From Eledone cirrhosa (Eukaryota): a DNA stretch of 64,000 bases. A program made the translations under genes and the position numbers. Positions 5,145 through 62,063 of the stretch are shown here, piece by piece (position 1 is the stretch's first letter; the number at the start of each line of letters is the position of its first letter). The DNA lies in assembly GCA_964016885.1 (NCBI GenBank), contig OZ024740.1, positions 229,214,001 through 229,278,000 on the forward strand, written 5' to 3'. Under the pieces are notes generated by a model. It was not told the origin of the DNA. It made no database searches and saw only the letters and a program-made list of their open reading frames with translations.

Positions 5145-5509
5145 AGTAAGAATATTTTCGAAACAGCGAGCGAGTTTGAAATTATAAATATAAGCTATCG
5201 CCGTATTTTGACTAAAGAAATTATTTAGCCTGATAGTGGGGTTAAGAACCCTCGGAGAAATGGAAAAAAAGATGAGTATTGACGTACATGGGAGTCGAAC
5301 CCACATCTTTGGTTATCCAGACCACTGTGCTACCATTACACCAACACATCACCCGTCATCGTCATTCAAATTAGAAGCTATAATCTTCTCCGAGGGTTCT
5401 TAACCCCACTATCAGGCTAAATAATTTCTTTAATTTCTTTAGTCAAAATACGGCGATAGCTTATATTTATAATTTCAAACTCGCTCGCTGTTTCGAAAAT
5501 ATTCTTACT
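5145..5509. repeat. ~115-bp inverted repeat enclosing a tRNA-like sequence
   Basis: Arms 5145-5259 and 5386-5509 are near-identical apart from a short duplication in the right arm. Abuts (TA)n. Confidence 0.85.
5281..5350 (-). pseudogene. tRNA-like cloverleaf (pseudo-tRNA or SINE head)
   Basis: gatgtgt/gtacgtc acceptor with G-U pairs, A-box tggtgtaatggt, anticodon arm tggt-ctggata-acca, T arm gtggg-ttcgact-cccat. Atypical anticodon GGA with T37. Confidence 0.6.
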
Positions 5510-12456: not shown

Positions 12457-12815
12457 TCATCATCATCATGTTCCCGCAACTGGTACAGCCAATCGTTGGG
12501 GGGTACCACTCTAAACGTTTTTGCAGTCAGTCGTCACCACTGGTCTCTATTCTCCGTCATGCGTAGAAGGTCTCGGTGTTGTGACCAGTCCAGTCTTTGA
12601 TGTTGTCGGACCAGGATTTTCTTCTGCCCCTTCTTCGCCCTCCCATCAACTGTGCCCTGATGAGAAGTCTTGGACTAGTTATGTGGCGGGAGGTATGACC
12701 ACACCCGACAAGCTTACGTCTTTTCATTATCGCAAGGAGTGGTTCCTGTCTGCCAACATATTTGTTAATTTGGTGCCTGACAAAGCTGTTCGTTTTGTGC
12801 TCCGTGTATGGGATG
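12457..12815 (-). mobile_element. RTE-type LINE 3' end with (ATG)n tail
   Basis: ...LLHIPYTEHKTNSFVRHQI...MKRRKL..GHTSRH...GGRRRGRRKSWSDNIKDWTG; catcatcat tail at ~12456-12470. Confidence 0.85.
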
Positions 12816-15800
12816 TGTAGCAACCTTCTGAAGTACTTGTGCTCCGTGTATGGGATGTGTAGCAACCTTCTGAAGCACTTGTACTCTGTGTATGGGATGT
12901 GTAGCAACCTTCTGAAGTACTTGTACTCTGTGTATGGGATGTGTAGCAACCTTCTGAAGCACTTGTACTCTGTGTATGGGATGTGTAGCAACCTTCTGAA
13001 GCACTTGTGCTCTGTGTATGGGATGTGTAGCAACCTTCTGAAGCACTTGTACTCTGTGTATGGGATGTGTAGCAACCTTCTGAAGCACGTGTGCTCTGTG
13101 TATGGGATGTGTAGCAACCTTCTGAAGCACTTGTGCTCTGTGTATAGGATGTGTAGCAACCTTCTGAAGCACTTGTGCTCTGTGTATGGGATGTGTAGCA
13201 ACCTTCTGAAGTACTTGTGCTCTGTGTATGGGATGTGTAGCAACCTTCTGAAGCACGTGTGCTCTGTGTATGGGATGTGTAGCAACCTTCTGAAGCACTT
13301 GTGCTCTGTGTATGGGATGTGTAGCAACCTTCTGAAGCACTTGTACTATGTGTATGGGATGTGTAGCAACCTTCTGAAGCACTTGTGCTGTGTATGGGAT
13401 GTGTAACTACCTTCTGAAGCACTTGTGCTCTGTGTATGGGATGTGTAGCAACCTTCTGAAGTACTTGTGCTCTGTGTATGGGATGTGTAGCAACCTTCTG
13501 AAGCACTTGTACTCTGTGTATGGGATGTGTAGCAACCTTCTGAAGCACGTGTGCTCTGTGTATGGGATGTGTAGCAACCTTCTGAAGCACTTGTGCTCTG
13601 TGTATGGGATGTGTAGCAACCTTCTGAAGTACTTGTACTCCGTGTATGGGATGTGTAGCAACCTTCTGAAGCACTTGTGCTCTGTGTATGGGATGTGTAG
13701 CAACCTTCTGAAGCACTTGTGCTCTGTGTATGGGATGTGTAGCAACCTTCTGAAGCATTTGAGCTCTGTGTATGGGATGTGTAGCAACCTTCTGAAGCAC
13801 TTGTGCTCTGTGTATGGGATGTGTAGCAACCTTCTGAAGTACTTGTGCTCTGTGTATGGGATGTGTAGCAACCTTCTGAAGTACTTGTGCTCTGTGTATG
13901 GGATGTGTAGCAACCTTCTGAAGCACTTGTGCTCTGTGTATGGGATGTGTAGCAACCTTCTGAAGTACTTGTGCTCTGTGTATGGGATGTGTAGCAACCT
14001 TCTGAAGCACTTGTGCTCTGTGTATGGGATGTGTAGCAACCTTCTGAAGCACTTGTGCTCTGTGTATGGAATGTGTAGCAACCTTCTGAAGCACTTGTAC
14101 TCTGTGTATGGGAGGTGTAGCAACCTTCAGAAGTACTTCTGCTCCGTGTATGGGATGTGTAGCAACCTTCTGAAGCACTTGTGCTCCGTGTATGGGATGT
14201 GTAGCAAACTTCTGAAGCACTTGTGCTCTGTGTATGGGATGTGTAGCAACCTTCTGAAGCACTTCTGCTCTGTGTATGGGATGTGTAGCAACCTTCTGAA
14301 GCACTTGTGCTCTGTGTATGGGATGTGTAGCAACCTTCTGAAGCACTTGTGCTCTGTGTATGGGATGTGTAGCAACCTTCTGAAGTACTTGTGCTCTGTG
14401 TATGGGATGTGTAGCAACCTTCTGAAGTACTTGTGTTGTGTATAGGATGTGTAGCAACCTTCTGAAGCACTTGTGCTCTGTGTATGGGATGTGTAGCAAC
14501 CTTCTGAAGCACTTGTGCTCCGTGTATGGGATGTGTAGCAACCTTCTAAAGCACTTGTGCTCTGTGTATGGGATGTGTAGCAACCTTCTGAAGTACATGT
14601 GCTCTGTGTATGGGATGTGTAGCAACCTTCTGAAGCACTTCTGCTCTGTGTATGGGATGTGTAGTAACCTTCTGAAGTACTTGTACTATGTGTATGGGAG
14701 GTGTAGCAACCTTCTGAAGCACTTGTGCTCCGTGTATGGGATGTGTAGCAACCTTCTGAAGCACTTGTGCTCCGTGTATGGGATGTGTAGCAAACTTCTG
14801 AAGCACTTGTGCTCTGTGTATGGGATGTGTAGCAACCTTCTGAAGCACTTCTGCTCTGTGTATGGGATGTGTAGCAACCTTCTGAAGCACTTGTGCTCTG
14901 TGTATGGGATGTGTAGCAACCTTCTGAAGCACTTGTGATCTGTGTATGGGAGGTGTAGCAACCTTCTGAAGCACTTGTGCTCTGTGTATGGGATGTGTAG
15001 CAACCTTCTGAAGCACTTCTGCTCTGTGTATGGGATGTGTAGTAACCTTCTGAAGCACTTGTGCTCTGTGTATGGATGTGTAGCAACCTTCTGAAGCATT
15101 TGTGCTCTGTGTATAGTAGGTGTAGCAACCTTCTGAAGCACTTGTGATCTGTGTATGGGATGTGTAGCAACCTTCTGAAGCACTTGTGCTCTGTGTATGG
15201 GATGTGTAGCAACCTTCTGAAGCACTTCTGCTCTGTGTATGGGATGTGTAGTAACCTTCTGAAGTACTTGTACTCCGTGTATGGGATGTGTAGCAACCTT
15301 CTGAAGCACTTGTGCTCCGTGTATGGGATGTGTAGCAACCTTCTGAAGCACTTGTGCTCCGTGTATGGGATGTGTAGCAACCTTCTGAAGTACGTGTGCT
15401 CTGTGTATGGGATGTGTAGCAACCTTCTGAAGTACTTGTGCTGTGTATAGGATGTGTAGCAACCTTCTGAAGCACTTCTGCTCTGTGTATGGGATTTGTA
15501 GCAACCTTCTGAAGCACTTCTGCTCTGTGTATGGGATGTGTAGCAACCTTCTGAAGCACTTCTGCTCTGTGTATGGGATGTGTAGCAACCTTCTGAAGCA
15601 CTTGTGCTCTGTGTATGGGATGTGTAGCAACCTTCTGAAGCACTTGTGCTCTGTGTATGGGATGTGTAGCAACCTTCTGAAGTACTTGTGCTCTGTGTAT
15701 GGGATGTGTAGCAACCTTCTGAAGTACTTGTGCTGTGTATAGGATGTGTAGCAACCTTCTGAAGCACTTGTGCTCTGTGTATGGGATTTGTAGCAACCTT

Positions 15801-17576
15801 CTGAAGCACTTCTGCTCTGTGTATGGGATGTGTAGCAACCTTCTGAAGCACTTCTGCTCTGTGTATGGGATGTGTAGCAACCTTCTGAAGCACTTGTGCT
15901 CTGTGTATGGGATGTGTAGCAACCTTCTGAAGCACTTGTGCTCTGTGTATGGGATGTGTAGCAACCTTCTGAAGCACTTGTGCTCTGTGTATGGGATGTG
16001 TAGCAACCTTCTGAAGTACTTGTGTTGTGTATAGGATGTGTAGCAACCTTCTGAAGCACTTGTGCTCTGTGTATGGGATGTGTAGCAACCTTCTGAAGTA
16101 CTTGTGCTCTGTGTATGGGATGTGTAGCAACCTTCTGAAGTACTTGTGTTGTGTATAGGATGTGTAGCAACCTTCTGAAGCACTTGTGCTCTGTGTATGG
16201 GATGTGTAGCAACCTTCTGAAGCACTTGTGCTCCGTGTATGGGATGTGTAGCAACCTTCTAAAGCACTTGTGCTCTGTGTATGGGATGTGTAGCAACCTT
16301 CTGAAGTACATGTGCTCTGTGTATGGGATGTGTAGCAACCTTCTGAAGCACTTCTGCTCTGTGTATGGGATGTGTAGTAACCTTCTGAAGTACTTGTACT
16401 ATGTGTATGGGAGGTGTAGCAACCTTCTGAAGCACTTGTGCTCTGTGTATGGGATGTGTAGCAACCTTCTGAAGCACTTGTGCTCTGTGTATGGGATGTG
16501 TAGCAACCTTCTGAAGTACTTGTGCTCTGTGTATGGGATGTGTAGCAACCTTCTGAAGCACTTCTGCTCTGTGTATGGGATGTGTAGTAACCTTCTGAAG
16601 TACTTGTACTCCGTGTATGGGATGTGTAGCAACCTTCTGAAGCACTTGTGCTCTGTGTATGGGATGTGTAGCAACCTTCTGAAGTACATGTGCTCTGTGT
16701 ATGGGATGTGTAGCAACCTTCTGAAGCACTTCTGCTCTGTGTATGGGATGTGTAGTAACCTTCTGAAGTACTTGTACTCCGTGTATGGGATGTATAGCAA
16801 CCTTCTGAAGCACTTGTGCTCTGTGTATGGGATGTGTAGCAACCTTCTGAAGTACTTGTACTCCGTGTATGGGATGTGTAGCAACCTTCTGAAGCACTTG
16901 TGCTCTGTGTATGGGATGTGTAGCAACCTTCTGAAGCACTTCTGCTCTGTGTATGGGATGTGTAGTAACCTTCTGAAGTACTTGTACTCCGTGTATGGGA
17001 TGTGTAGCAACCTTCTGAAGCACTTGTGCTCCGTGTATGGGATGTGTAGCAACCTTCTGAAGCACTTGTGCTCTGTGTATGGGATGTGTAGCAACCTTCT
17101 GAAGCACTTGTGCTCTGTGTATGGGATGTGTAGCAACCTTCTGAAGCACTTCTGCTCTGTGTATGGGATGTGTAGTAACCTTCTGAAGTACTTGTACTCC
17201 GTGTATGGGATGTGTAGCAACCTTCTGAAGTACTTGTGCTGTGTATGGGATGTGTAGCAACCTTCTGAAGCACTTGTGCTCTGTGTATGGGATGTGTAGC
17301 AACCTTCTGAAGTACTTGTACTCCGTGTATGGGATGTGTAGCAACCTTCTAAAGCACTTGTGCTCCGTGTATGGGATGTGTAGCAACCTTCTGAAGCACT
17401 TGTGCTCTGTGTATGGGATGTGTAGCAACCTTCTGAAGCACTTGTGCTCTGTGTATGGGATGTGTAGCAACCTTCTGAAGCACTTGTACTCTGTGTATGG
17501 GATGTGTAGCAACCTTCTGAAGTACTTGTGCTCTGTGTATGGGATGTGTAGCAACCTTCTGAAGTACTTGTGCTCC
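12796..17576. repeat. 42-bp minisatellite, ~113 copies, derived from LINE ORF2
   Basis: Unit tgtgctctgtgtatgggatgtgtagcaaccttctgaagcact; the minus strand encodes EHKCFRRLLHIPYT, contiguous with the LINE at 12457-12815. Confidence 0.95.
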
Positions 17577-18880: not shown

Positions 18881-19367
18881 GATATACGGCATTTCCTTGG
18901 CCTTTTAAGCCTGGCGGAGCCATGCCTGAATACAGCAGATTTCTTCCAGAGAAGGATAGAAAGTAAGAGAGAGGAAGTGTAAAAGAGATAAAGAGGAAGA
19001 ATCGACCCCAAGTCTAGACTGGTACTTTTTTTATCGACCTCGAAAGGATGAAAGAGAAAGTTGACCTCTACGGGATTTAAACTCAAAGAGCAGATAGCCG
19101 GAACGAATACTGCATGGCATTCCACCCGACGTTCTAATGGTTCCGCTAATTCACCGCCTTAGATTTGACAGGTACACATCAACCCCCGGTGGAGTCAAGC
19201 AAGGGTGCGTGATTGCTCTGATTCTCTTTACGACTGATAAACGCCTTCCAGTCTCCCTCTGATAACGTGTGCATTCACAAACACCACATAACAGATAAAT
19301 TGTAAAGCTTAGACCATATGCATGCAAAATAATTGCTTGATTCAACATTTGCCACAAGGCCAGAAAT

Positions 19368-22300
19368 TTGAAGGAAAAGGGGAATTCCGTGAAGTATTTT
19401 GAAGAGAAAGGGAAATTCCGTGAAGTATTTTGAAGGGAAAAAGAAATTCCGTGAAGTATTTTGAAGGGAAAGGGAAATTCCCTGAAGTATTTTGAAGGGA
19501 AAAGGGAAATTCCCTGAAGTATTTTGAAGGGAAAGGGGAATTCCGTGAAGTATTTTGAAGGGAAAAGGGAATTCCGTGAAGTATTTTGAAGGGAAAGGGG
19601 AATTCCGTGAAGTATTTTGAAGGGAAAAGGGAATTCCGTGAAGTATTTTGAAGGGAAAGGGAAATTCCCTGAAGTATTTTGAAGAGAAAGGGAAATTCTG
19701 TGAAGTATTTTGAAGGGAAAGGGAAATTCCGTGAAGTATTTTGAAGGAAAAGGGAAAGGGAAATCCCGTGAAGTATTTTGAAGGGAAAGGGAAATCCCGT
19801 GAAGTATTTTGAAGGGAAAGGGAAATCCCGTGAAGTATTTTGAAGGGAAAGGGAAAGGGAAATCCCGTGAAGTATTTTGAAGGGAAAGGGAAATCCCGTG
19901 AAGTATTTTGAAGGGAAAGGGGAATTCCGTGAAGTATTTTGAAGGGAAAGGGAAAGGGAAATCCCGTGAAGTATTTTGAAGGGAAAGGGAAAGGGAAATC
20001 CCGTGAAGTATTTTGAAGGGAAAGGGAAAGGGAAATCCCGTGAAGTATTTTGAAGGGAAAGGGAAATCCCGTGAAGTATTTTGAAGGGAAAGGGAAATCC
20101 CGTGAAGTATTTTGAAGGGAAAGGGAAATTCCGTGAAGTATTTTGAAGGGAAAGGGAAAGGGAAATCCCGTGAAGTATTTTGAAGGGAAAGGGAAATCCC
20201 GTGAAGTATTTTGAAGGGAAAGGGAAATTCCGTGAAGTATTTTGAAGGGAAAGGGAAAGGGAAATTCCGTGAAGTATTTTGAAGGGAAAGGGAAAGGGAA
20301 AGCCCGTGAAGTATTTTGAAGGGAAAGGGGAATTCCGTGAAGTATTTTGAAGGGAAAGGGGAATTCCGTGAAGTATTTTGAAGGGAAAGGGGAATTCCGT
20401 GAAGTATTTTGAAGGGAAAGGGAAAGGGAAATTCCGTGAAGTATTTTGAAGGGAAAGGGGAATTCCGTGAAGTATTTTGAAGGGAAAGGGTAATCCCGTG
20501 AAGTATTTTGAAAGGAAAGGGAAAGGGAAAATCCGTGAAGTATTTTGAAGGGAAAGGGGAATTCCGTGAAGTATTTTGAAGGGAAAGGGGAATTCCGTGA
20601 AGTATTTTGAAGGGAAAGGGGAATTCCGTGAAGTATTTTGAAGGGAAAGGAGAATTCCGTGAAGTATTTTGAAGGGAAAGGGAAATTCCGTGAAGTATTT
20701 TGAAGGGAAAGGGAAATTCCGTGAAGTATTTTGAAGGGAAAGGGAAATCCCGTGAAGTATTTTGAAGGGAAAGGGAAATTCCGTGAAGTATTTTGAAGGG
20801 AAAGGGAAAGGGAAATCCCGTGAAGTATTTTGAAGGGAAAGGGAAATTCCGTGAAGTATTTTGAAGGGAAAGGGAAATCCCGTGAAGTATTTTGAAGGGA
20901 AAGGGAAATCCCGTGAAGTATTTTGAAGGGAAAGGGAAAGGGAAATCCCGTGAAGTATTTTGAAGGGAAAGGGAAATCCCGTGAAGTATTTTGAAGGGAA
21001 AGGGAAATCCCGTGAAGTATTTTGAAGGGAAAGGGAAAGGGAAATCCCGTGAAGTATTTTGAAGGGAAAGGGAAATCCCGTGAAGTATTTTGAAGGGAAA
21101 GGGAAATCCCGTGAAGTATTTTGAAGGGAAAGGGGAATTCCGTGAAGTATTTTGAAGGGAAAGGGAAATCCCGTGAAGTATTTTGAAGGGAAAGGGGAAT
21201 TCCGTGAAGTATTTTGAAGGGAAAGGGAAATCCCGTGAAGTATTTTGAAGGGAAAGGGAAATCCCGTGAAGTATTTTGAAGGGAAAGGGAAAGGGAAATC
21301 CCGTGAAGTATTTTGAAGGGAAAGGGAAATCCCGTGAAGTATTTTGAAGGGAAAGGGAAATCCCGTGAAGTATTTTGAAGGGAAAGGGAAATCCCGTGAA
21401 GTATTTTGAAGGGAAAGGGAAATCCCGTGAAGTATTTTGAAGGGAAAGGGAAAGGGAAATCCCGTGAAGTATTTTGAAGGGAAAGGGAAATCCCGTGAAG
21501 TATTTTGAAGGGAAAGGGAAAGGGAAATCCCGTGAAGTATTTTGAAGGGAAAGGGAAATCCCGTGAAGTATTTTGAAGGGAAAGGGAAAGGGAAATCCCG
21601 TGAAGTATTTTGAAGGGAAAGGGAAATCCCGTGAAGTATTTTGAAGGGAAAGGGAAATCCCGTGAAGTATTTTGAAGGGAAAGGGAAATCCCGTGAAGTA
21701 TTTTGAAGGGAAAGGGAAAGGGAAATCCCGTGAAGTATTTTGAAGGGAAAGGGAAATCCCGTGAAGTATTTTGAAGGGAAAGGGAAAGGGAAATCCCGTG
21801 AAGTATTTTGAAGGGAAAGGGAAATCCCGTGAAGTATTTTGAAGGGAAAGGGAAAGGGAAATCCCGTGAAGTATTTTGAAGGGAAAGGGAAATCCCGTGA
21901 AGTATTTTGAAGGGAAAGGGAAAGGGAAATCCCGTGAAGTATTTTGAAGGGAAAGGGAAATCCCGTGAAGTATTTTGAAGGGAAAGGGAAATCCCGTGAA
22001 GTATTTTGAAGGGAAAGGGAAATCCCGTGAAGTATTTTGAAGGGAAAGGGAAAGGGAAATCCCGTGAAGTATTTTGAAGGGAAAGGGAAATCCCGTGAAG
22101 TATTTTGAAGGGAAAGGGAAAGGGAAATCCCGTGAAGTATTTTGAAGGGAAAGGGAAATCCCGTGAAGTATTTTGAAGGGAAAGGGAAATCCCGTGAAGT
22201 ATTTTGAAGGGAAAGGGAAAGGGAAATCCCGTGAAGTATTTTGAAGGGAAAGGGAAATCCCGTGAAGTATTTTGAAGGGAAAGGGAAATCCCGTGAAGTA

Positions 22301-24010
22301 TTTTGAAGGGAAAGGGAAATCCCGTGAAGTATTTTGAAGGGAAAGGGGAATTCCGTGAAGTATTTTGAAGGGAAAGGGGAATTCCGTGAAGTATTTTGAA
22401 GGGAAAGGGGAATTCCGTGAAGTATTTTGAAGGGAAAGGGAAATCCCGTGAAGTATTTTGAAGGGAAAGGGGAATTCCGTGAAGTATTTTGAAGGGAAAG
22501 GGGAATTCCGTGAAGTATTTTGAAGGGAAAGGGGAATTCCGTGAAGTATTTTGAAGGGAAAGGGAAATCCCGTGAAGTATTTTGAAGGGAAAGGGGAATT
22601 CCGTGGAGTATTTTGAAGGGAAAGGGGAATTCCGTGAAGTATTTTGAAGGGAAAGGGGAATTCCGTGAAGTATTTTGAAGGGAAAGGGGAATTCCGTGAA
22701 GTATTTTGAAGGGAAAGGGAAAGGGAAATCCCGTGAAGTATTTTGAAGGGAAAGGGGAATTCCGTGAAGTATTTTGAAGGGAAAGGAGAATTCCGTGAAG
22801 TATTTTGAAGGGAAAGGGAAAGGGAAATCCCGTGAAGTATTTTGAAGGGAAAGGGAAATCCCGTGAAGTATTTTGAAGGGAAAGGGAAATCCCGTGAAGT
22901 ATTTTGAAGGGAAAGGGAATTCCGTGAAGTATTTTGAAGGGAAAGGGAAAGGGAAATCCCGTGAAGTATTTTGAAGGGAAAGGGGAATTCCGTGAAGTAT
23001 TTTGAAGGGAAAGGGGAATTCCGTGAAGTATTTTGAAGGGAAAGGGAAAGGGAAATCCCGTGAAGTATTTTGAAGGGAAAGGGGAATTCCGTGAAGTATT
23101 TTGAAGGGAAATGGAAATCCCGTGAAGTATTTTGAAGGGAAAGGGGAATTCCGTGGAGTATTTTGAAGGGAAAGGGGAATTCCGTGAAGTATTTTGAAGG
23201 GAAAGGGGAATTCCGTGAAGTATTTTGAAGGGAAAGGGGAATTCCGTGAAGTATTTTGAAGGGAAAGGGGAATTCCGTGGAGTATTTTGAAGGGAAAGGG
23301 GAATTCCGTGAAGTATTTTGAAGGGAAAGGGGAATTCCGTGAAGTATTTTGAAGGGAAATGGAAATCCCGTGAAGTATTTTGAAGGGAAAGGGGAATTCC
23401 GTGGAGTATTTTGAAGGGAAAGGGGAATTCCGTGAAGTATTTTGAAGGGAAAGGGAAAGGGAAATCCCGTGAAGTATTTTGAAGGGAAAAGGAAAGGGGA
23501 ATTCCGTGAAGTATTTTGAAGGGAAAGGGAAAGGGAAATCCCGTGAAGTATTTTGAAGGGAAAAGGAAAGGGAAATCCCGTGAAGTATTTTGAAGGGAAA
23601 GGGAAAGGGAAATCCCGTGAAGTATTTTGAAGGGAAAGGGAAAGGGGAATTCCGTGAAGTATTTTGAAGGGAAAGGGAAAGGGAAATCCCGTGAAGTATT
23701 TTGAAGGGAAAGGGGAATTCCGTGAAGTATTTTGAAGGGAAAGGGAAAGGGAAATCCCGTGAAGTATTTTGAAGGGAAAGGGGAATTCCGTGAAGTATTT
23801 TGAAGAGAAAGGGAAAGGGAAATCTCGTGAAGTATTTTGAAGGGAAAGGGAAAGGGAAATCCCGTGAAGTATTTTGAAGGGAAAGGGAAAGGGAAATCCC
23901 GTGAAGTATTTTGAAGGGAAAGGGAAAGGGAAATCCCGTGAAGTACTTTGAAGGGAAAAGGAAATTCCGAGAAATATTTTGAAGGGAAAGGGAATTCCGA
24001 GAAATATTTT
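19368..24010. repeat. 31/37-bp purine-rich minisatellite, ~140 copies
   Basis: Unit gaagggaaa(gggaaa)gggaaatcccgtgaagtatttt with an optional extra gggaaa. Confidence 0.95.
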
Positions 24011-24957
24011 GTCCGGCGCCTTAATGACTCTGCTAATCCGCCACACTACATAAGTCAACCGTATGTTTACACCTCTAGCTTCACATTTAAATCGTGTACA
24101 AAGACGATAATTGGCAGTCAGTGACCCTGTGGAGTAATGGTTAAAACACACACGACTTGCATACGAGAGATGTATGGCTCGTTTCCACAGAGGCCTCTCA
24201 ATCCACTTTTTACCGTTTCTAATGAGTAATTTACTCAATTTGTTCAACTATTATTTATAGTTATCTGCAGGATGACAGGCAAAGGTCAATTCTGCCTTCA
24301 TCCTTCTGGAGGTCGAAATAATAAAGTACCGTAAATTACTGTAGTCGTTCAAATCGACTTTCTTTTCCCCACCCCTACACATTGCTGGCCTTGTCCCTAA
24401 ATTACAAACCATTATAGTTATCTATCTACATTGAGCGACTATATAATCTAGCTGTCGTCTGTTCTACAAATCTAGCTGTCGTCTGTTCTACAAATCTAGC
24501 TGTCGTCTGTTCTACAGCGTAGATGTAATTCACTTCACGCAGAAGTTTTGTTCAAATTTATTGCGGAAATTTTGTAAGTTCAATTTTAATTTTGATACTA
24601 TTGTGTAGCTTGACCCCCCCCCCCCCTGAACTGTCAGGTGGTGGGTCAGCTCATCTTTACCCCTCCTAGGGGTGAAAAACCTGTTTTTAAAAATTTTGTG
24701 GCATAAAAAATTTCAATCGTCTGACAGAAATGTTAAACGAAGCTAACGAAAATAGTGGTGGGGGGACAGCGGTAAGAGTTGTAAGCTCGCACGCTTTAGT
24801 CCCCCCCCCTTCCTTCCCAACTAACGTCATAGAGAAGGAAAGAAAAAATAAAATAAAAACAGACGAATCTGCGGAGAAAAATGACGAAAACACAAATCTG
24901 GACATTGATTCCAACAACGAAAAAAAAAAATTTGAAAAATTGCATGACAATATTAAT

Positions 24958-25119: not shown

Positions 25120-25358
25120 TGCATGACAATATTAATACCACAAACAAAGACACGACAAACACAAAAATAACATTTGAAAACAACATCATAACAGAAAGCA
25201 AAGCAGACGACAAAGTCAACACCAATAATATTTAGTTTGCACAAACAACAAAGAAATCTTTGACATATATACCTGAAAATATTTCAGATGTGGCACAAAG
25301 AATTACAGACGCCAAACAATATATAACTGAAGGAGAAAATGGTATTTTATAGGTAAAA

Positions 25359-26796
25359 ATGCCTCAAGAACTCACCAAAGACATTGAAAGTCGAACGGTC
25401 ATTTTCCGCACCATCAACAATATTTCTAAAAAACCTGAACAGCCAACTCAAACAGAAATCAAAACAGTACTTACAGAAGTACTTAATGAAACCACTTTCA
25501 TAAGAAAAGACAGACTGTATGGAAGCCTAGCGATTATTATGAAGAACGAATCGGCGGCAAAAAAATGTGCTTTGTCACCGATTCGTTCAAAATTTTTTAC
25601 CTTTTATCCATCTTATATGGGTAAAAGAACTCAACGCATATGGCTGGATGCAATGATGCCAGATGTGGACTACTGCAGGCTCATAGCTGGCTTCATCGAT
25701 CCAGCGAATGACAACGTGATTTCCATTGGGAAAACCACAGGCAATGCGTTCAGTGGAACAGGTATAGAACTTGTAGTGCAAATGAAGCCTGAACGCATCG
25801 CCCAAATACCCGACAGAATCCTATTAGCGTGGAGGGGAGAAGGCCGTCCTGTCATATCTGTGCAGGCAGAGGGCACCTGAAGGCGGCTTGTCCCCAACTC
25901 AACAAAAAGAAAACCCTGCTACCAACACCAGCTCCACCACCACCACCACAACAGATAAACAAGCAACAAAGCTCAGTCCCACCCAACCCGTCCCTCAGTA
26001 AAACTACACCACCACCACAACACAAACAGTCACAACACATTACCCCAAAACAAAATACAGGCCCACCCAACCCCTCACTCAATAAAACAACACAACCACC
26101 GCAGCCACAACACACAACACAGTCTAACATAGTGACATCCATCTCTCCCACAAAGAAAACCAACACGGAAACATTACCAGCAAACATACCTCTTCCCTCC
26201 AACACTGAAGATAACCCAACGAATTCGGAGGAAGAACGGAGTCCTTCAGACAGATTAAAAGGAAAAAAAGAAAACATGTGCAAAACACACAAGGCCAAAC
26301 AACCCCCACCCAAATGTCAACACAATCCAACAAAACACAAAACACCCCTCCAGCAACAAACAAAACCAAACCTGCCCCTCCCCTCTTCGAAACACTCACA
26401 CCATCCGAAAAAAAGACATTACACTATACTTACATCAACAGAAACAATAATAAATTAAATGAACTCATAAACAATAATCCTTCGGTACAAACCGAAGGTG
26501 TAAACTTTGTTTCTTCAGAAAACTACCCACATTTAAAATTAATAAAGATCCCAATGAACCTCTACCAAAAACTAAAAAAGGATTTTAAGGAGGACGTAGG
26601 ACCACCCTCTGTCAAACCCATAAACCGCGTTCTACTAAAAAGCTTTCCCCCTCCCCTTCCCCTCCCCAACACAACTCCAAACACCCCAACCCCACCACAC
26701 ATTGACGACCCAACACCACCACAAGACACCCCTTCACCCAACACCCCCGACCCCATGGAAGTCGTGCGACCCGAACCCCGGGAAGCAGAAAGGTAG
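25359..26796 (+). pseudogene. LINE ORF1 (gag-like), frameshifted
   Basis: CHICAGRGHLKAAC (CX2CX4HX4C) followed by a Pro/Thr-rich region; split over three frames. Confidence 0.8.
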
Positions 26797-26829
26797 GTCT
26801 CTACACTCTCCTTTGGCTTTGCCGCCCAC

Positions 26830-29800
26830 ATGGATGTGTTAAGAGTAGGATGTTTGAATGCACGTGGCCTGGGCTCAACTTGGATGCAAGCAAAGCTTCT
26901 AGACCTCAGGTCATGTGGTATAAATGTAATGGTTATCTGTGAGACTCGGATCAGCGTCGTGCGGCAGCTGGCCCCTACCTTCGATGACTTTGAGGTGCAT
27001 GCATCTCTCTGTCAACCTGGAGGTGGGGTGGGGTTGTCGTACTGCTGCAAAAACACCTGGGTCTTGCCGTACAGGTTGTTCACTCGGACCCGGAGGGTCG
27101 TTTGTTGGTGCTAGACGTTGGCAGTAGTGAAGGTGCGGCCTTGAGACTGGTCGCCGTCTACTCCCCTTTCGGAGCTGAACGGCCCGACTTCTTCCAGCGT
27201 TTGGAGACTTTTCTGGGAACGTCGCGTTCCCTGCTTCTAGCGGGGGATTGGAATGACATCCTAGATGCACGTTGGGACTATGCAGGAGCATGTCCTAATA
27301 GAGGGGAGTGTAACAGCCTCAAGGGGTTACTCGACCGTTTTAACTTGGTCGATAGATATCGACTAGATTTTCCAACTGTGCCTACCTGGACTTGGACGAA
27401 CCACAGTGGTCAATCTAGATCGTACTTAGATAGATTCTTAGTTAGAAGTAAGGATAGGGACATATTAAGCTGTCCAGAAATGCGCACGGTTGGCTATACG
27501 GATCACAAATTAGAAATTACAAATTAGAAATCACAAATTAGAAATTAGAAAACACATAAACAGGGTCCCGGTTACCGGAAACTTAATTTGTCTTTACCGG
27601 CAAAAGAGACTTACAGAAACCGGATTAGCAGATTAGTTAAGGAGAGGTTGACGGGTGCAATCGTCAACAACCGATGGTGGGCATCTCTCAAAAGAGAGAT
27701 TAGAACCTGAATCAATAAGTTATAGCAAGATGTTAGCTGCCGATAGGAATAGAAACGAGAAAGAATTAACAGGTAAATTAGAAGAGGCAATCAAGAGCGA
27801 AGATGTGGCCAGAGTGCTGGCATCGAGGACGGCCTTGAACCAGTTTTTCGATGCAAAGCACGAAGGCTGCGTCATTCGAAGTAAAATACGTGCTCTAGGT
27901 AATGAGGGGGGCAAATCCGTTGGCTGGGCCCGCGTGACAGAAGCTAAGAGTGGAAATCGATCCACCATCCGGTCTTTGCAAGATGAGGATGGACGGGTGA
28001 TCCGGGAGCCTAAGCAGATGTGCGAGGCCTTTCAAAGGCACTTTGCCCGATTATTCGGGGGAGGCGAGGGTCCAGGCGGTGACGTGGATTTCGGTCCATA
28101 CCTCGACGGCCTGCCGCGTCTCTCGAGCGAAGAGGCAGAGTTCTGCGAGGGACCAATCTCGGCTGATGATATCGGAGATGCGCTGAGCCAATGCAGCAGA
28201 CGCAAATCTCCAGGTCTCGGTGGTATACCTTACGAACTTTATTTAGCAATGCCGGTCTTCTTCTCCGAACTCCTCGAAGCGGTCTACTGCAATTGGCAGC
28301 AGAACGGGAGAATTTCTTGTTCTGTAGCCAAGGGCGTAGTCTCGCTGGTGAGGAAGGACGAGAACAAGGGGGATAGTATAAATAATTTTCGGCCCATAAC
28401 CCTTCTAAACACAGAGTTAAAGATTTTGGCCAAGGTGTTAGCAAAGAGGTTGGCGCTTGTCGTGGGTAGCCTGGTGGGAGATGCGCAGACATGTGCTATC
28501 CCATCCATGTCCATTCACGATAACCTCCACCTCATGCGATACATCATAGAGAGGGTTGGCAACAAACCCGGCTTCGGTGGGGCCCTGATCAACTTGGATC
28601 AGTCTAAGGCCTTCGATAGGGTCGACCATGGTTACCTGGATGCGGTGCTAGCGGCGGCTGGGTTCGGTCCTGTTTTCAGAGGCTGGATCACTGCCTTACA
28701 TAGCAACCACATCTGCTCTAGGATCAAGGTGAACGGCTACCTTTCGAAGCCGTTCGAAATCACACGATCCATTCGACAGGGGTGCCCTCTCTCCTCCCTT
28801 CTGTACGTATTGACTCTCGAGCCTTTACTGAGGAAGTTGGAGTTGTTGCAGGGTATCCCCCTAGAACCAGGATTGAGCAAAGCGGTGTCGGCCTACGCTG
28901 ATGACGTAACAGTAATGGTATCGACCGACTCGGAGATCGAGGCGATCCGTACCTTACTGGAGGATTACGAAAGGTTGTCAGGAGCGAAACTGAACCGGGA
29001 AAAATCCATCGGGCTGCAACTCGGAACGTGGAGAGGCAGACCGATGCCTCCCGACGGTGTCGTCGGACACTGGACGGAGGGCCCGGTAAAGTTGCTTGGG
29101 CCGGACCTCCAGGTGGAAAAGAACTGGGACGAGGTTACGAACAAGGTGTTTGCACTAACCCAGAAATGGGCCAAGTGTAAGCTGTCCCTAAAAGGCCGGG
29201 CGGAGGTGGCGAACATTTACATAGCGTCCGTCACTTACTACCGCCTGACTGTCGTGCCTTGCCCTAAGGAAACACTCACCACCATGGAACGCATGCTCTT
29301 CTAATTTCTTTGGAAGAAGTGCCCTCCTATGGTGAGAAGATCCATCTGCTGCCAACAACCTTCGAAAGGAGGGCTGGGGATGCCGTGGTTGATGGTGCGT
29401 AGGCACGCATTAAGGCTACGGCACCTACAGGTATTCCTCACTGGTCAACCGGTGTGGGCTCCGTTCGTAAAACGAGCCTTTCCGAGACTCGTCTCGCTCA
29501 CCGAGCTGCAGTCCTGGGTCAAGCAAAGATCCGGAAAACTGGGAGACTGGCACACTGAGTGTGCTCAGGCGCTCAGGGCTCTCTGGCAAGCGGGCCAGGC
29601 CATCGGTGGAGAATCCACCTCATCATTCTATAGAGGGCTGGTGGCTAGCAGGGGCGATGACACCCTTGGAGAGTCGCTGGACATGGAAGAGGACGAACTG
29701 GCCAACCTGTTCGGTAGGACTTTCGGCCCGGGACCAATGGACAACTTCCAGAAGTCACTAGCCTGGCAGTGCTACCGGGGGGCTCTACCCGTTCGAGAGA

Positions 29801-30263
29801 GGCTCTACAGACACGGGCGCCCGGGCAGGGATCCCTCAAAAAAGATTTGACCTAGATGCGTGCGTCACGAAGAAACCGTTGCGCACGCATTGGTGCAATG
29901 TCCTGGCGTGGCTGATCTGTGGGGCTACGCCGAACGACTGCTGTCGCGGGTGGCGCCGATTCGATTGACCGCCGAGTCCGTGATGACAATCAAACCGCCT
30001 CCCTCTTCACAAAGGAAGCAAAGGCGGTTTTTCTGTGCGTAATAGCCATGTTGAAAGAGGTTGTTTGGTGGACACGATTGAAAGGTCTGAGGTCAGGCAA
30101 CTTCCTCTCTGGCCATAGTCTGGTCTACTTCTTCCGATATCACTTCGGAAGAAGGATAAGAATGGAGAGAGAGGTACTTGGCCACAGCCAGTTTTATGAA
30201 AGGTGGGTGATAGTGGCGAGAATGGCTCGTGTAAATGGGCCTTCTCTGTATACCATCCTGTAG
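26830..30263 (+). pseudogene. LINE ORF2 (APE endonuclease, reverse transcriptase, C-terminal zinc finger), disrupted
   Basis: LNARGL, ICET, GDWN, SYLDRF, TDH (APE); FRPITLLN, LDQSKAFDRV, RQGCPLS, YADD (RT); EETVAHALVQC. Several frameshifts and a stop at 29302. Confidence 0.92.
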
Positions 30264-31177: not shown

Positions 31178-31207
31178 GCACAACATACATATATATATAG
31201 AGATAGA

Positions 31208-32020
31208 ATAGAAATGGCTGTGTAGTTGCTATTTAAGGTAACTTAAAATGCGGTGGGAATACAAAGAAAGCAAGAACGGGGGCGAGGGGGTTCCTCATCA
31301 GTTGTCTACTGGGGTTCTCGGATATTTTAACACTTTAAAGACAATATATCTCGACCCAGGGTGTCAATAACTGGATAAGTTATTGGGAAAAAGGGGGAGG
31401 GAGGGAAAGCAAAAGGGAAGAAAGAGAAAACAGTAAAAAAAACAGCGAAAAAAACAACAACAAACCGAGCAATATGCGAATAACTTAAGGTAAGGAAATC
31501 CAAGACCACTCGATAAGAGAACTTAAGTTCAAGACTGAGTGGTCGAGAGGAGAAAGACACACGTCTGATCGTTGCAGTTGTAAGTGAAAAGAGAACTGCT
31601 AAACGGTCAGGCGAGGGGGTGAAAGTGAGAGGGAGAAAGGGAGAGGAAGAAAGTGGGATAAGAGTAGATAGGGAGAAAGGGAGTGGGGGAAAGAGGGGTG
31701 AGAGTAGAAAGTAGCGAAATAGGTAGGTAGAAGGGGAGAGAAGAATGGTCAAAGCGAAAGCATGATGAAATATAAGGAGAATAGAAATGGCTGTGTAGTT
31801 GGTATTTAAGGTAACTTAAAATACGGTGGGAATACGAAGAAAGCAAGAACGGGGAGGGGGGGGACGGTCCCTCATCAGTTGTCTACTGGGGGTCTCGGAT
31901 ATTTCTACGCTTTAAAGACAATATATCTCGCCCCAGGGCGTCAATAATTGGATAAGTTATTGGCAAAACGGAGAAGGGAGGGAAGGAAAGCAAAAGGGAA
32001 GAAAAGAGAAAACAGTAAAA
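31208..32020 (-). mobile_element. Repeat family B: ~240-bp diverged direct repeats (pLTR-like), each with a rearranged hammerhead-like motif
   Basis: ~31208-31440 is repeated at ~31780-32020. Minus-strand CTGATGA at 31295-31301 and 31872-31878. Confidence 0.65.
31867..31936 (-). ncRNA. Candidate non-circularly permuted hammerhead (family B)
   Basis: ctgggg-cg-agataT-A-ttgtct-ttaaagcgta-GAAA-tatcc-gagac-ccccag-t-agacaa-CTGATGA-gggac. Stems I and III pair; stem II is essentially absent. Confidence 0.5.
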
Positions 32021-32138
32021 AACCAAACTCCCTTTCTCCCTATCTACTCTTACTAAGATTTCACAGCTCTAGCTTCAATCCTCCATGCTCAGCCTATGAA
32101 CTTTTCAGCCTACCCTCGAATACATACAAACACAAACA

Positions 32139-32234: not shown

Positions 32235-32388
32235 TAGGAACAAGTATGACCCCGACGGCAGAGCTCAAGCCGTTTCGACGGCTTGAGCTCTGCCGTCGGG
32301 GGCATACTTGTTCCTATTACCCACTCTACTACCCTAAGTGCTTTGCTGCCTTATGGTCCATCTGGTTCCTTACCACATTTCCTTCGTT
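32235..32388 (+). mobile_element. Fold-back family C copy with deleted apex
   Basis: Arms meet at gccgtttcgacggc; flanked by (TA)n. Confidence 0.7.
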
Positions 32389-34940: not shown

Positions 34941-37778
34941 CAGGGGTCGGCACCCCGGCCCGCGGACCACATCCGGCCCTCGAGTGATTTTTGTCCGGCC
35001 CACCATCTTACACTGGACACTAATTATCTAATTAGTATCGAATACAGATATAGTAGTTCACTTCAAGGTTGTACCGACCTGATGCCCATCACAAATCGCT
35101 GCTCATAACGTATATATTTACACATACCTTTAAACCTTATTATATTTTCCATTTATTATTATTTCCTCTTATCCATCTTTTTCTGGGCATTCCGCCAAGC
35201 ATTATATCACCTGTATTATTATTTCCTGTGATTTCATGTATGTGTTTTTTTTCCAGTCAACAAATCCAAATGTTGGCTGGAAGAATGCCTTTTCGTTAGC
35301 GACTGGAAGGTATACTACCTTACGGTTCGCATGACTCGCTTTTATACCCATATTGTCATTCAATAAAATTACTCGTGAATTATTGTCGTCTTCGTTTGCC
35401 TGACCTTACCTGTGCCCCCCCTCCCGGCACAAGGTAAAGCTGTCCTTGGAAAAATTACTTCGTTCCCTCCTCCCCAGAGTATTTTCATTTGAGTTTGTTG
35501 TCTGGTGGTATAACAACTATACAGTAGGTATCTTTATTCGATAATAACGTTTATTTAATTATTTGTGATAAATTGTGTGAATTATTATTATTAGAATTAG
35601 GCCAAAAGTGGTTTAAAAAAACAAATGGCAACCCTGATCTAACAACGTCGTTAGAAACCTGATTTTATATAATTTATTCGCAATTATCCTATTTTATCGC
35701 ATTACTGTATTTGCATTTACATTTGTTTTCATTGTTTCTTATTTCTTCATTCTGATTATTATACTTTTTGTTCTTTTTCCTTTCCATAAATCTTTTTTGT
35801 TTGAACAGAAACAAGCTAAGAAAAGAAAAGTGGATTTGGAGTGCCGAACTTTTAACCATGGCTGGACACTTAGCTATTTTTTCATTGACCACTTCGGAAA
35901 CAATTGCTGTGAAGAAAGTTTCAAATATTAAACGGCACTATAAACTCGTCATAATCATTACAACAGTTTTACTGGAAAAGCACGAGTAAACGAAGTTGCA
36001 CGGCTGAGAAATAATGTAACAAAGCAATCATCCTTTTTCACTAGAAAAGTTGAAGAAAGTGACCGAAACACTCGTGCTAGCTACGAGGTGTCAAAACTAA
36101 TTGCAGAAAGGATGAAACCTTTTACTGATGGAGATTTCTTCAAAGAATTATTGTTGAAGGTAGCAGATGTTGTTTGTCCAGAAAAAAGGGAATTATTTTC
36201 TGCGATCAGCTTATCGGCAAGAACAGTAACAAGGCGAATTGAAGAGCTGGCAGCAAATGTCAGAAGTGGCTTGGAGGGCATTTTAAATAATCTGGAGTAT
36301 TATTCAATTGCTATCGATGAAACCACAGATATGAAGGATACTTGTCAACTTGCAGTGTTTGTGAAGGGTGTAACACCAACATTTTATATTGTGGAAGAAT
36401 TTGTAGAATTGGTTCCTATGAAGGACACTAGCACTGGAGCAGATATTTTGGAAAGCATAATAAAATGGATTACCGAAATGAATCTGGATTTATCAAAGCT
36501 TTCTGGAGTAATCACAGATAGAGCAGCAGCAATGGTTGGAGAGAAAAAGGGGTTTGTTGCATTGCTCCAAAACCACATCGGTATTGATCAAAAACTAATC
36601 AAACTTCATGCATTATGTGAAAAGTCATTGAATTTTAAGGACATCATGGCAGTGGTCGTGACAACAGTGAATTTTATACTGTCAAGAGGACTAAATCCCC
36701 GCCAGTTTCAAGAATTTCTGAAACAAATTGAAGCAGAGTATGGCGACCTTGCATATTTTTCAAATGTTCGATGGCTTAGCCGCGGGAAAATGATAGAACG
36801 AGTATATGCATTGAGAGAAGAGATTTCTATGTTTTTAGAGAGCAAAGACCAAGATAATTCTTACTTTCAGGATCCACAGTGGGTTGATAAGTTAGCTTTT
36901 TTAGTGGACATCACGACCCACATGAACACTTTGAATTTTGAGCTTCAAGGAAAGAACAAAGTTGTATTTGAGATGTTTGGTCAAATTACTGCTTTTGAGA
37001 GAAAACTTCGACTGTGGGAATCACAACTTCAAAAAGGAAACTACTCTCATTTCCCAAGTCTCCAAAATCACAAGAGAGATATAATACCGGACATCTTTGT
37101 GAGCTCTATTAAGGATTTGAGAAGCGAGTTTTCCTCTCGTTTTGCTGACTTCCGGCAATATGGAACTCTATTTAAGTTATTTGGTACTCCTTACGAAACA
37201 GATGTGGAGCAAGTGGCAGAAGAATATCAGTTGGAGTTAATTGACTTACAGTGCGACGAATCTTTGAAATCGAAATTTCAGTTCGAATCCACTGCTGACT
37301 TCTACAAGCGGAAAATATAACAACATCTTGACTAATGTGAAACTGATGATATCATTATTTGGAAGTACATATACTTGTGAACAACTTTTTTTCCAAAATG
37401 AAATATACTAAAAGTCATTTAAGAACAAGGTTGCGTGACGACCACCTGGATGATGTTTTGCTCCTGTCATCGACAAATATTTCACCTGATGTGGAGAAGT
37501 TATCGCACAAACAAGTGTCTCATTAAATCATTTACCATTTCTAACTGTATTTCGTTTGTAGCAAGGAATTTGCTTTTTTTTTTGTTGATTTTGATAGTAG
37601 TTGTTTTTCTGTTATTCCTGCAGTAAAATAAGGGGCCTTGTTAAAATAAAATTATATTAAATTCCTTGTTTTGCTTTAAACCTCCAGAAAATTCCTTTAC
37701 ATATTTAATAACATGGCCCTCCTCCATGACACTGCATAGCTGTTTGGCCCTCTCTCTCCAAAAGGTTGCCGACCCCTG
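34941..37778 (+). mobile_element. Complete hAT DNA transposon, Buster/Charlie type
   Basis: TIRs caggggtcggca/tgccgacccctg; 8-bp TSD gtcTAtat at 34933-34940 and 37779-37786; internal transposase. Confidence 0.95.
36088..37525 (+). pseudogene. hAT transposase (GTF2IRD2/ZBED5-like), disrupted
   Basis: KPFTDGDF, LSARTVTRRI, SIAIDETTD, ITDRAAAM and VRWLSRGK in the 410-aa ORF. The C-terminal FGSTYTCEQLF segment is out of frame after 37320 and the N-terminus is decayed. Confidence 0.9.
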
Positions 37779-56481: not shown

Positions 56482-57512
<1,031 letters not shown>

Positions 57513-57658
57513 TTGTTATATAGTAAGGTGTATTATTGGTTGTGAAAAACAGTCCAATAAATTTTTGTTAGCAATATTAAGTTCTCCACGCTTTTGTATA
57601 TCTCCAATTCCATTCAAGGGAACAGCTAGATGATGTAAAACGGAGTATTAGTGTCACT

Positions 57659-58425
57659 GGCCTGACCACTAGTATAGCTAAGCTTTTCTTTAGGGCCTTA
57701 GACAAATGCTTCCCTAGATCACACAGATACTATAAAATATTCTATAGGAATACCATCAAGCTGTCCCTCTCCACAATCAGTAACATAGCTCAGAATATAG
57801 CTAAGATGAATTATAGTAGACTTAGGACAGCCCAAGGGGGGACTAGACATGGCAGAACTATGGATGAACGGACTCATACACGTGAGGCGAGTCGGGTCAC
57901 CCCAACCCCTGGGAACTTACCCATAGAGCAGACAAGAACTGAGACCCGACCCCAAAGGTACCGTGGTTCCTCTGGAACTACCCAAGTCGATAGCAGAAAA
58001 TGTAATTGCAGGAACACCGCCACTTGCCCCATGGCTGGGAAATGCCTTTCCAAAAACATAGTCTACGACTGTAAGGTCTCCACTCTTGATAGGACCTTCA
58101 GGTATATTGGGGCAACTGCCACTGAATTTAAGGATAGATGGTATAATCACCGCCATACCTTTAATAGATTAGATAAAAAAATAGCACGGGATTTTCTGAA
58201 TTAGTCTGGAAGCTTAAACAACAGAATATAGAGCACTCCTTATCCTGGTCCATAATTTGCTCAGCCCAGCCTTATAAGGGCAGCACTGGCGTCTGTAATT
58301 TATGTATAGCTGAAACCTTTAATATGATTAGAGGCGGCCCCCTATTAATTAATAGGGGGGCGAATTTTTTCAGCAACTGCCAACATAGAACCTCGAAAAC
58401 CTTCCGCAGGATTTTTGGAAAGTAA
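57659..58425 (+). pseudogene. Penelope-like element ORF 3' part (linker plus GIY-YIG endonuclease), frameshifted
   Basis: IAKLFFRALDKCFPRSHRYYKIFYRNTIKLS; CNCR...CPMAGKCL..NIVY...YIGAT..FKDRWYNH; CNLCIAE; EFFSNCQH; stop at 58423-58425. Putative 3' UTR extends to ~59500. Confidence 0.9.
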
Positions 58426-61883: not shown

Positions 61884-62063
61884 TTGTTTGTTACCCTGGC
61901 GTCCCCTTTGTTTACGTGTCCCAACGACTTTTTTTAGCCGTTGTTCGCACCAACCTGAGGCATATGGCCCTTAAAGCGATGAAATGCCTGGGACGGTTGG
62001 AGGGTCACTGATGAAGGACTTACTTTTTCATATGCACCACCATTTGCAATGCGCAGCCATCAT

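Follow-up and report, generated by a model that had tools for sequence, protein, structure and literature searches.

A predicted hammerhead ribozyme with an upstream-donated stem II in non-coding tandem repeats of Eledone cirrhosa

A 64,000-nt stretch of the Eledone cirrhosa genome (GCA_964016885.1, contig OZ024740.1, positions 229,214,001 to 229,278,000 of the forward strand; the whole stretch is called the window) contains repeats that carry hammerhead core sequences in a rearranged order. The first-pass annotation described two such copies, forming a family (B) whose stems differ in sequence from those of a second family (A). The locus raises the question of where such a core would obtain its stem II, whether the pairings have been maintained by selection, and what kind of element carries them.

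Location and wiring of the motif

Two family-B motifs were confirmed on the minus strand where the first-pass annotation had placed them. Their three helices, UA site and both core boxes were as originally written, including the change of GAAA to AAAA in the 31290 copy. The extent of the motif required revision: the three helices are part of six, and the motif starts about 32 nt earlier, at 31968 and not at 31936. The direct repeat of about 240 bp reported around the copies is real (245 nt, 89% identity, 31205-31440 and 31778-32022), and is the overlap of a 577-nt monomer present at 1.4 units. A descriptor of stems I and III with both core boxes gave five matches of identical spacing in the window, four in family A and one in family B (the 31867 copy). 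Neither family-B window copy passed a descriptor of all six helices, stem IV being damaged in the upstream copy and G12 lost in the downstream copy. The features are as follows.

31205-32022, minus strand: family-B element, a non-coding partial tandem of 1.4 units of a 577-nt monomer with a (TA)n end, delimited by coverage by other loci and tandem spacing
31866-31968, minus strand: upstream ribozyme copy; core, stems I to III and interaction helix intact, stem IV damaged, hairpin V with one mismatch
31963-31968, minus strand: stem IV 5' strand, damaged in this upstream copy; partner 31866-31871, directly after CUGAUGA
31942-31962, minus strand: hairpin V, 7 bp
31938-31941, minus strand: stem II 5' strand; partner 31907-31910, one nt before GAAA
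31931-31936, minus strand: 5' strand of the stem I/II interaction helix; partner 31886-31891
31916-31927, minus strand: block S, comprising stem III 3' strand, U16.1-H17 and stem I 3' strand; predicted cut between 31922 and 31921
31898-31910, minus strand: block G, comprising stem II 3' strand, GAAA and stem III 5' strand
31866-31884, minus strand: block C, opened, comprising stem I 5' strand, CUGAUGA and stem IV 3' strand
31291-31389, minus strand: downstream ribozyme copy, predicted inactive; G12 replaced by A, helices retained
57296-57399, plus strand: family-A copy with all six helices (six-helix descriptor)
56564-56667, minus strand: family-A copy in an inverted, 5'-truncated arm (six-helix descriptor)
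56714-56790, plus strand: family-A copy cut by the inversion junction, without the 5' strands of IV and V
61918-62019, plus strand: family-A subfamily copy, stems I and III compensated (six-helix descriptor)

The motif comprises all conserved hammerhead bases in S-G-C order (cleavage site, GAAA, CUGAnGA) together with six covarying helices, and natural copies are 90-110 nt long. Read 5' to 3', its first half consists of a stem IV strand, hairpin V, a stem II strand, an interaction-helix strand, and a stem III strand, UH and stem I strand in succession. The second half consists of a short linker (5 nt from stem I to stem II in family B), the other stem II strand with GAAA and a stem III strand, the second interaction strand, and a stem I strand with CUGAnGA and the second stem IV strand.

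It had been suggested that tertiary contacts of the conserved taaagcg linker may replace stem II. This proposal was not borne out: the 3' half of the linker joins an upstream strand in a Watson-Crick stem II of 4-5 bp that covaries between families (acgc/gcgu in B, ucgc/gcga in A and ggcgc/gcgcc in a third family, C). In all seven lineages tested, a stem II continuous from A9 amounted to 0-2 bp and the upstream partner offered 4-6 bp. The 31867 copy has a gggac/gtccc hairpin that could serve as a canonical stem II following CUGAUGA; this and other pairings of the kind were rejected as not conserved within family B.

The bases 3' of CUGAnGA pair with a strand lying upstream of the stem II strand, forming stem IV, and hairpin V fills the gap. 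Because IV pairs upstream and V lies between, a four-way junction is predicted where II, IV and V join the core, each side having 0-3 spare bases. Stem II would stack beneath the A9-G12 pair as usual, IV and V would stack as a second arm, and the RNA would cut after H17. The ctgggg/ccccag helix, initially taken for the first helix of the motif, corresponds better to what Eckert 2023 describes as the stem I/II interaction helix; one of its sides lies 3' of the stem II strand and the other 5' of the stem I strand.

In family C, and likewise in three metagenome loci described below (L230, L231 and L246), the upstream-donated stem II has a G-C pair at its foot. Families A and B are without the usual G10.1-C11.1 pair and have one extra base before GAAA, and in family A a rival 6-bp register is available to the stem II strand. 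Given the missing pair and the competing family-A register, both families may be slower or inactive. Dimerization through a cuuuaaag palindrome was also considered and rejected, since the palindrome is broken in family C and in one A subfamily.

Pairing across families and chance controls

Distinct copies spanning the motif numbered 31 in family B (from 73 matches), 50 in family A (from 103) and 26 in family C (from 34). Family-B cells were paired in 175/183 cases for stem IV, 206/217 for V, 113/124 for II, 165/185 for the interaction helix, 151/155 for III and 174/185 for I, and the counts for families A and C were similar. Such within-family percentages largely reflect shared descent, the double changes being the informative part. 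Between A and B, 17 of 28 pairs were changed on both sides (a count that excludes stem IV, in which the two families are one base apart in register), and 94% of cells were paired compared with 28-45% for slid registers in 20 hand-picked rows. The interaction helix contributed double changes in five of its six pairs. Stems V, III and I showed double changes among family-A copies as well, and family C had its stems rewritten once more. These data support the first-pass view that the stems were rewritten with compensation between families.

The flanks of A and B had been described as unrelated. This is true of most of their length, where only short matches were found (best 29 nt at 83%), but the 30 nt upstream are homologous and form the same hairpin. 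The family-B consensus does contain the pairings, and A/B identity is not uniform over the flanks, so neither observation that might have overturned the first-pass reading was made. By their homology across the ribozyme, A and B are two descendants of one motif and not independent origins.

Both the CUGAnGA and GAAA boxes were intact in 22/31 B, 46/50 A and 21/26 C copies. The cleavage-site dinucleotide was UC in 16, UA in 12, UU in 2 and UG in 1 of the family-B copies, UA in 48/50 of family A, and UC in 24 and UU in 2 of family C. H17 was therefore C, A or U in 30/31 B copies and never G in the 26 C copies.

The six-helix descriptor, which is independent of sequence, gave 89 matches in 779,604 bases of E. 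cirrhosa loci, a set selected for the motif and including duplicates. Reversing these loci left no match, and 4,619 shuffles of the window yielded 5. In Rfam searches the motif went unmatched up to E = 10, as did L230, L231 and L246 up to E = 5. Nested folding of one family-B copy (L009) recovered IV, V, the interaction helix and III (z -3.4); folding of L246 recovered IV, V and the interaction helix with stem III shifted, and one family-C copy adopted a different fold (z = 0.1). Nested folding cannot test stems I, II and III, because the three cross one another.

Two additional groups of copies were noted. A fifth family, E (minus strand of L149, near positions 1870-1975 of its reverse complement), mixes A and B features and has a CUGAAGA core, a 5-bp stem II and a 6-bp stem IV. 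An old family, D (L131, L171, L172, L177 and L269-L278), shows stems I to III plus the interaction helix and is too decayed for IV and V.

The carrier repeat and its relation to Naiad elements

First-look searches of the genome returned 2,675 candidates for family B, 1,411 for A and 2,054 for C, figures that are candidate counts and not copy numbers. The stretch between the two window repeats was covered by 28-29 of 29 other family-B loci. Tandem spacing was 518-579 nt in B, 604-614 nt in A and 690 nt in C, and outside the ribozyme the units of the three families shared short matches only. The family-B element contained no long frame of coding character, and the Naiad open reading frame (N-terminal GIY-YIG, CxC, RT) was absent from it. 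Inverted truncated arms were present, including in the family-A element at 56520-57410 of the window. Among 34 family-A ends, 9 lay 11 nt and 16 lay 51 nt past the anchor, both positions falling just before an internal ATAT (25/34). A (TA)n tract was found within 400 nt of the last copy in 34/34 A, 16/16 C and 13/20 B cases. PLE insertions likewise show partial tandems, inverted arms and ends at (TA)n, which supports the PLE-type carrier suggested at first pass. Forty genomic copies of family A were 100% identical over 146 nt, which argues for recent mobilization of this family, although the Naiad remnants found are broken.

The element shares with retrozymes its non-coding tandem units, one ribozyme motif per unit and dispersed copies; a type I hammerhead was not matched by the motif in the stem I/III descriptor or the Rfam search. 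The carrier is likely a Naiad-derived retrozyme. In the proposed cycle, multimeric transcripts of the tandem repeats would be cut into monomers of 570-690 nt, which would circularize as shown for type I retrozymes (PMC7229834). A PLE enzyme would then reverse-transcribe the circles in trans, giving 1.4-unit tandems. Priming might occur by annealing of nicked (TA)n to the RNA, as suggested by the family-A ends at ATAT.

Other repeats occupy the same window. A broken LINE with endonuclease and RT frames, which we take to be L1/Tx1-like, lies at 25350-29850 (plus strand), and a 458-aa frame at 35944-37320 (plus strand) presumably represents a hAT-type transposase. Long minisatellite arrays occur at 12640-17400 (42-nt unit) and 19150-24050, and a tRNA-like match above the Rfam gathering score at 5280-5350 (minus strand). 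A near-perfect palindrome at 32235-32316 comes from a short TA-flanked repeat with further occurrences in the window.

A metagenome scan with the linker pattern gave 36 matches, of which three (L230, L231 and L246) passed the six-helix descriptor with new stem sequences and 33 failed. Between L230 and L231, stem II shows a double change. Viral contigs gave a single match, identical to the stretch at metagenome locus L243, one of the loci failing the descriptor. L230 also contains a 410-aa RT frame, which precedes the motif by about 230 nt and is encoded on the same strand. The closest longer relative of this frame (91% identity) is a 955-aa protein in which GIY-YIG occupies residues 93-136, with CxC and DKA motifs also present; this N-terminal GIY-YIG and the motifs make up the Naiad architecture. 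Adjacency to PLE RT/GIY-YIG frames, which the first-pass annotation had proposed to check, is thus seen at L230, with its Naiad-type RT, but not in E. cirrhosa, where none of 144 motif loci contained a Naiad RT when four Naiad-type proteins were used as queries.

All six helices were identified by eye in eight published Naiad consensus tails (PMC8557442 supplement), within the part of its 54 unaligned consensus sequences that was viewed. These are Acropora Amil, Aacu and Anas, Morbakka Movir-2, Pomphorhynchus Plae, Eulimnadia EuTe, and Octopus Obim and Ovul (PMC8557442); the names Amil, Aacu, Anas and Movir-2 were assigned by file order. Each of the eight has a G-C foot on the upstream-donated stem II, for example ggcucc/ggagcc, ggcccc/ggggcc, gacgcc/ggcguc and gacacc/gguguc. 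The Octopus motifs have 3-nt and 6-nt linkers identical in length to those of families A and B, and a stem IV of just 3 bp in both Obim and Ovul. The same by-eye reading of the supplement did not reveal the motif in the Omin, Dcar and Ppla tails. At least five further consensus tails, three of them Nippostrongylus by file order, look like type CSG with an ordinary stem II.

Within E. cirrhosa, 69 matches to Naiad remnants were found, all broken, with a longest open frame of 233 aa, and the 23 stretches downstream of such remnants contained no intact motif. Descent of the motif from the 3' untranslated tail of a Naiad PLE is likely by analogy with these other organisms, from which it is drawn because the E. 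cirrhosa remnants are broken and none was found linked to the motif. The (TA)n bias does not single out Naiads, since Neptune PLEs have been proposed to share a microsatellite insertion bias (PMC8557442).

A PLE remnant with a C-terminal GIY-YIG at 57581-58400 (plus strand) was rejected as a partner, as the loci of its 29 relatives were without the motif within 1.5 kb. This remnant had 51,203 first-look candidates in the genome, and towards the 3' end of its relatives a CUGAyGA box precedes repeats of gatc. Intact PLEs with a C-terminal endonuclease are abundant (L262-L266; frames of 710-777 aa with C-terminal GIY-YIG, in many copies of near-identical score). The 777-aa element had no sequence in common with units A, B or C; these PLEs are a candidate helper enzyme.

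Alternative readings and comparison with known systems

On the model developed here, the motif is quite probably a self-cleaving hammerhead in which an upstream strand supplies stem II by way of a four-way junction placed at A9/N10.1, with likely descent from a Naiad tail and a proposed retrozyme cycle. Cleavage could also proceed in another geometry, with stem IV, which continues from A9, stacking as the working stem II, or with the crossing helices formed between two molecules or tandem units. In its favour, stem IV shows conservation and covariation, a single chain would have difficulty forming three helices that all cross one another, and the units are arranged in tandem. Small PLE hammerheads reportedly cleave as dimers, which offers a precedent. 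Such a geometry is nonetheless unlikely: a G-C foot pair is conserved on the upstream-donated helix while the pair following A9 varies freely, and the SGC and CSG constructs of Eckert, which have crossing stems, cleaved during transcription (PMC10085705).

A little less likely still is that the fold, non-cutting at least in A and B, serves to bind or position the PLE reverse transcriptase. A signal of this kind would not require CUGAnGA, GAAA and the UH rule, all of which are kept in lineages with unrelated stem sequences. It would suit the ends of the elements, which lie at downstream ATAT sites and not at the predicted cut, as well as the non-canonical stem II foot of A and B; and 8 of 9 predicted Xenopus retrozymes failed to cleave in vitro (preprint 10.64898/2026.07.22.740005). 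That the pairings reflect chance or plain shared ancestry in a decaying repeat is very improbable and already largely refuted. A and B are homologous across the motif, and the one apparent double change of stem II in the 31290 copy is explicable by CpG decay alone; against this stand the near-empty descriptor controls and the recurrence of the six helices, in different sequences, among metagenome contigs and among the published Naiads from four phyla.

We lean towards a broader form of the self-cleaving reading, which seems moderately probable: that the wiring lies outside the six layouts considered possible, with the core entered through the A9/N10.1 junction; that it is an overlooked ribozyme of many cnidarian, acanthocephalan, crustacean and mollusc Naiads, others having type CSG; and that it drives recently mobile circular-RNA retrozymes in E. 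cirrhosa. Naiads were reported without a canonical hammerhead, with only "cores" or "half cores" flagged (PMC8557442), and the motif may answer the puzzle stated there of how they thrive. It would have been missed because standard descriptors cannot see such wiring. RNA engineering might also benefit from a hammerhead whose core offers a free helical port.

Eckert 2023 derived exactly six possible hammerhead layouts on the assumption of an uninterrupted block C (PMC10085705), an assumption that the motif breaks. In that study, rearranged hammerheads came from environmental sequence and one bacterium only, type SGC from metatranscriptomes and type CSG from two metagenome sequences, with none from an animal genome; the present copies would place such ribozymes in animal genomes at high copy number. 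The motif shares with types SGC and CSG the core bases, a short linker between stems I and II, a helix joining the far ends of I and II, and crossing stems, and with SGC specifically the S-G-C block order (PMC10085705). Unlike both, its block C is broken, its stem II 5' strand does not follow CUGAnGA as theirs does, two helices are added in the predicted four-way junction, and both of the loops left open in SGC and CSG are closed. As its predicted wiring stands, the motif is not a member of type SGC: order and interaction helix are shared, and block C is not unbroken.

An extra base beside A9 or G12, as in families A and B, has precedent in natural core variants (PMC3088659), and Hydra PLE motifs have one extra base on each side of stem II (file S2, PMC8557442). 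These variants are insertions of 1-2 nt, whereas the motif has a strand break and two added helices. Hammerhead variants with additional helices are mentioned in a 2026 paper (PMC13725137); term searches of one of the three sources that it cites (PMC10162972) and of PMC3088659 returned no such junction. A literature search covering few subscription journals found no report of the fold.

The E. cirrhosa element resembles Naiads in its (TA)n targets, partial tandems, inverted truncated arms and an optional tail of 30-40 nt (PMC8557442), and differs from them in being non-coding. With animal non-LTR retrozymes it shares non-coding tandem units, one ribozyme motif in each, high copy number and a proposed PLE origin (PMC7229834; 10.64898/2026.07.22.740005). 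Known retrozymes carry type I hammerheads in units of mostly 150-450 nt, whereas the E. cirrhosa units span 570-690 nt and carry a predicted, rewired ribozyme. The PLE origin proposed for animal retrozymes in the preprint (10.64898/2026.07.22.740005) fits the E. cirrhosa element.
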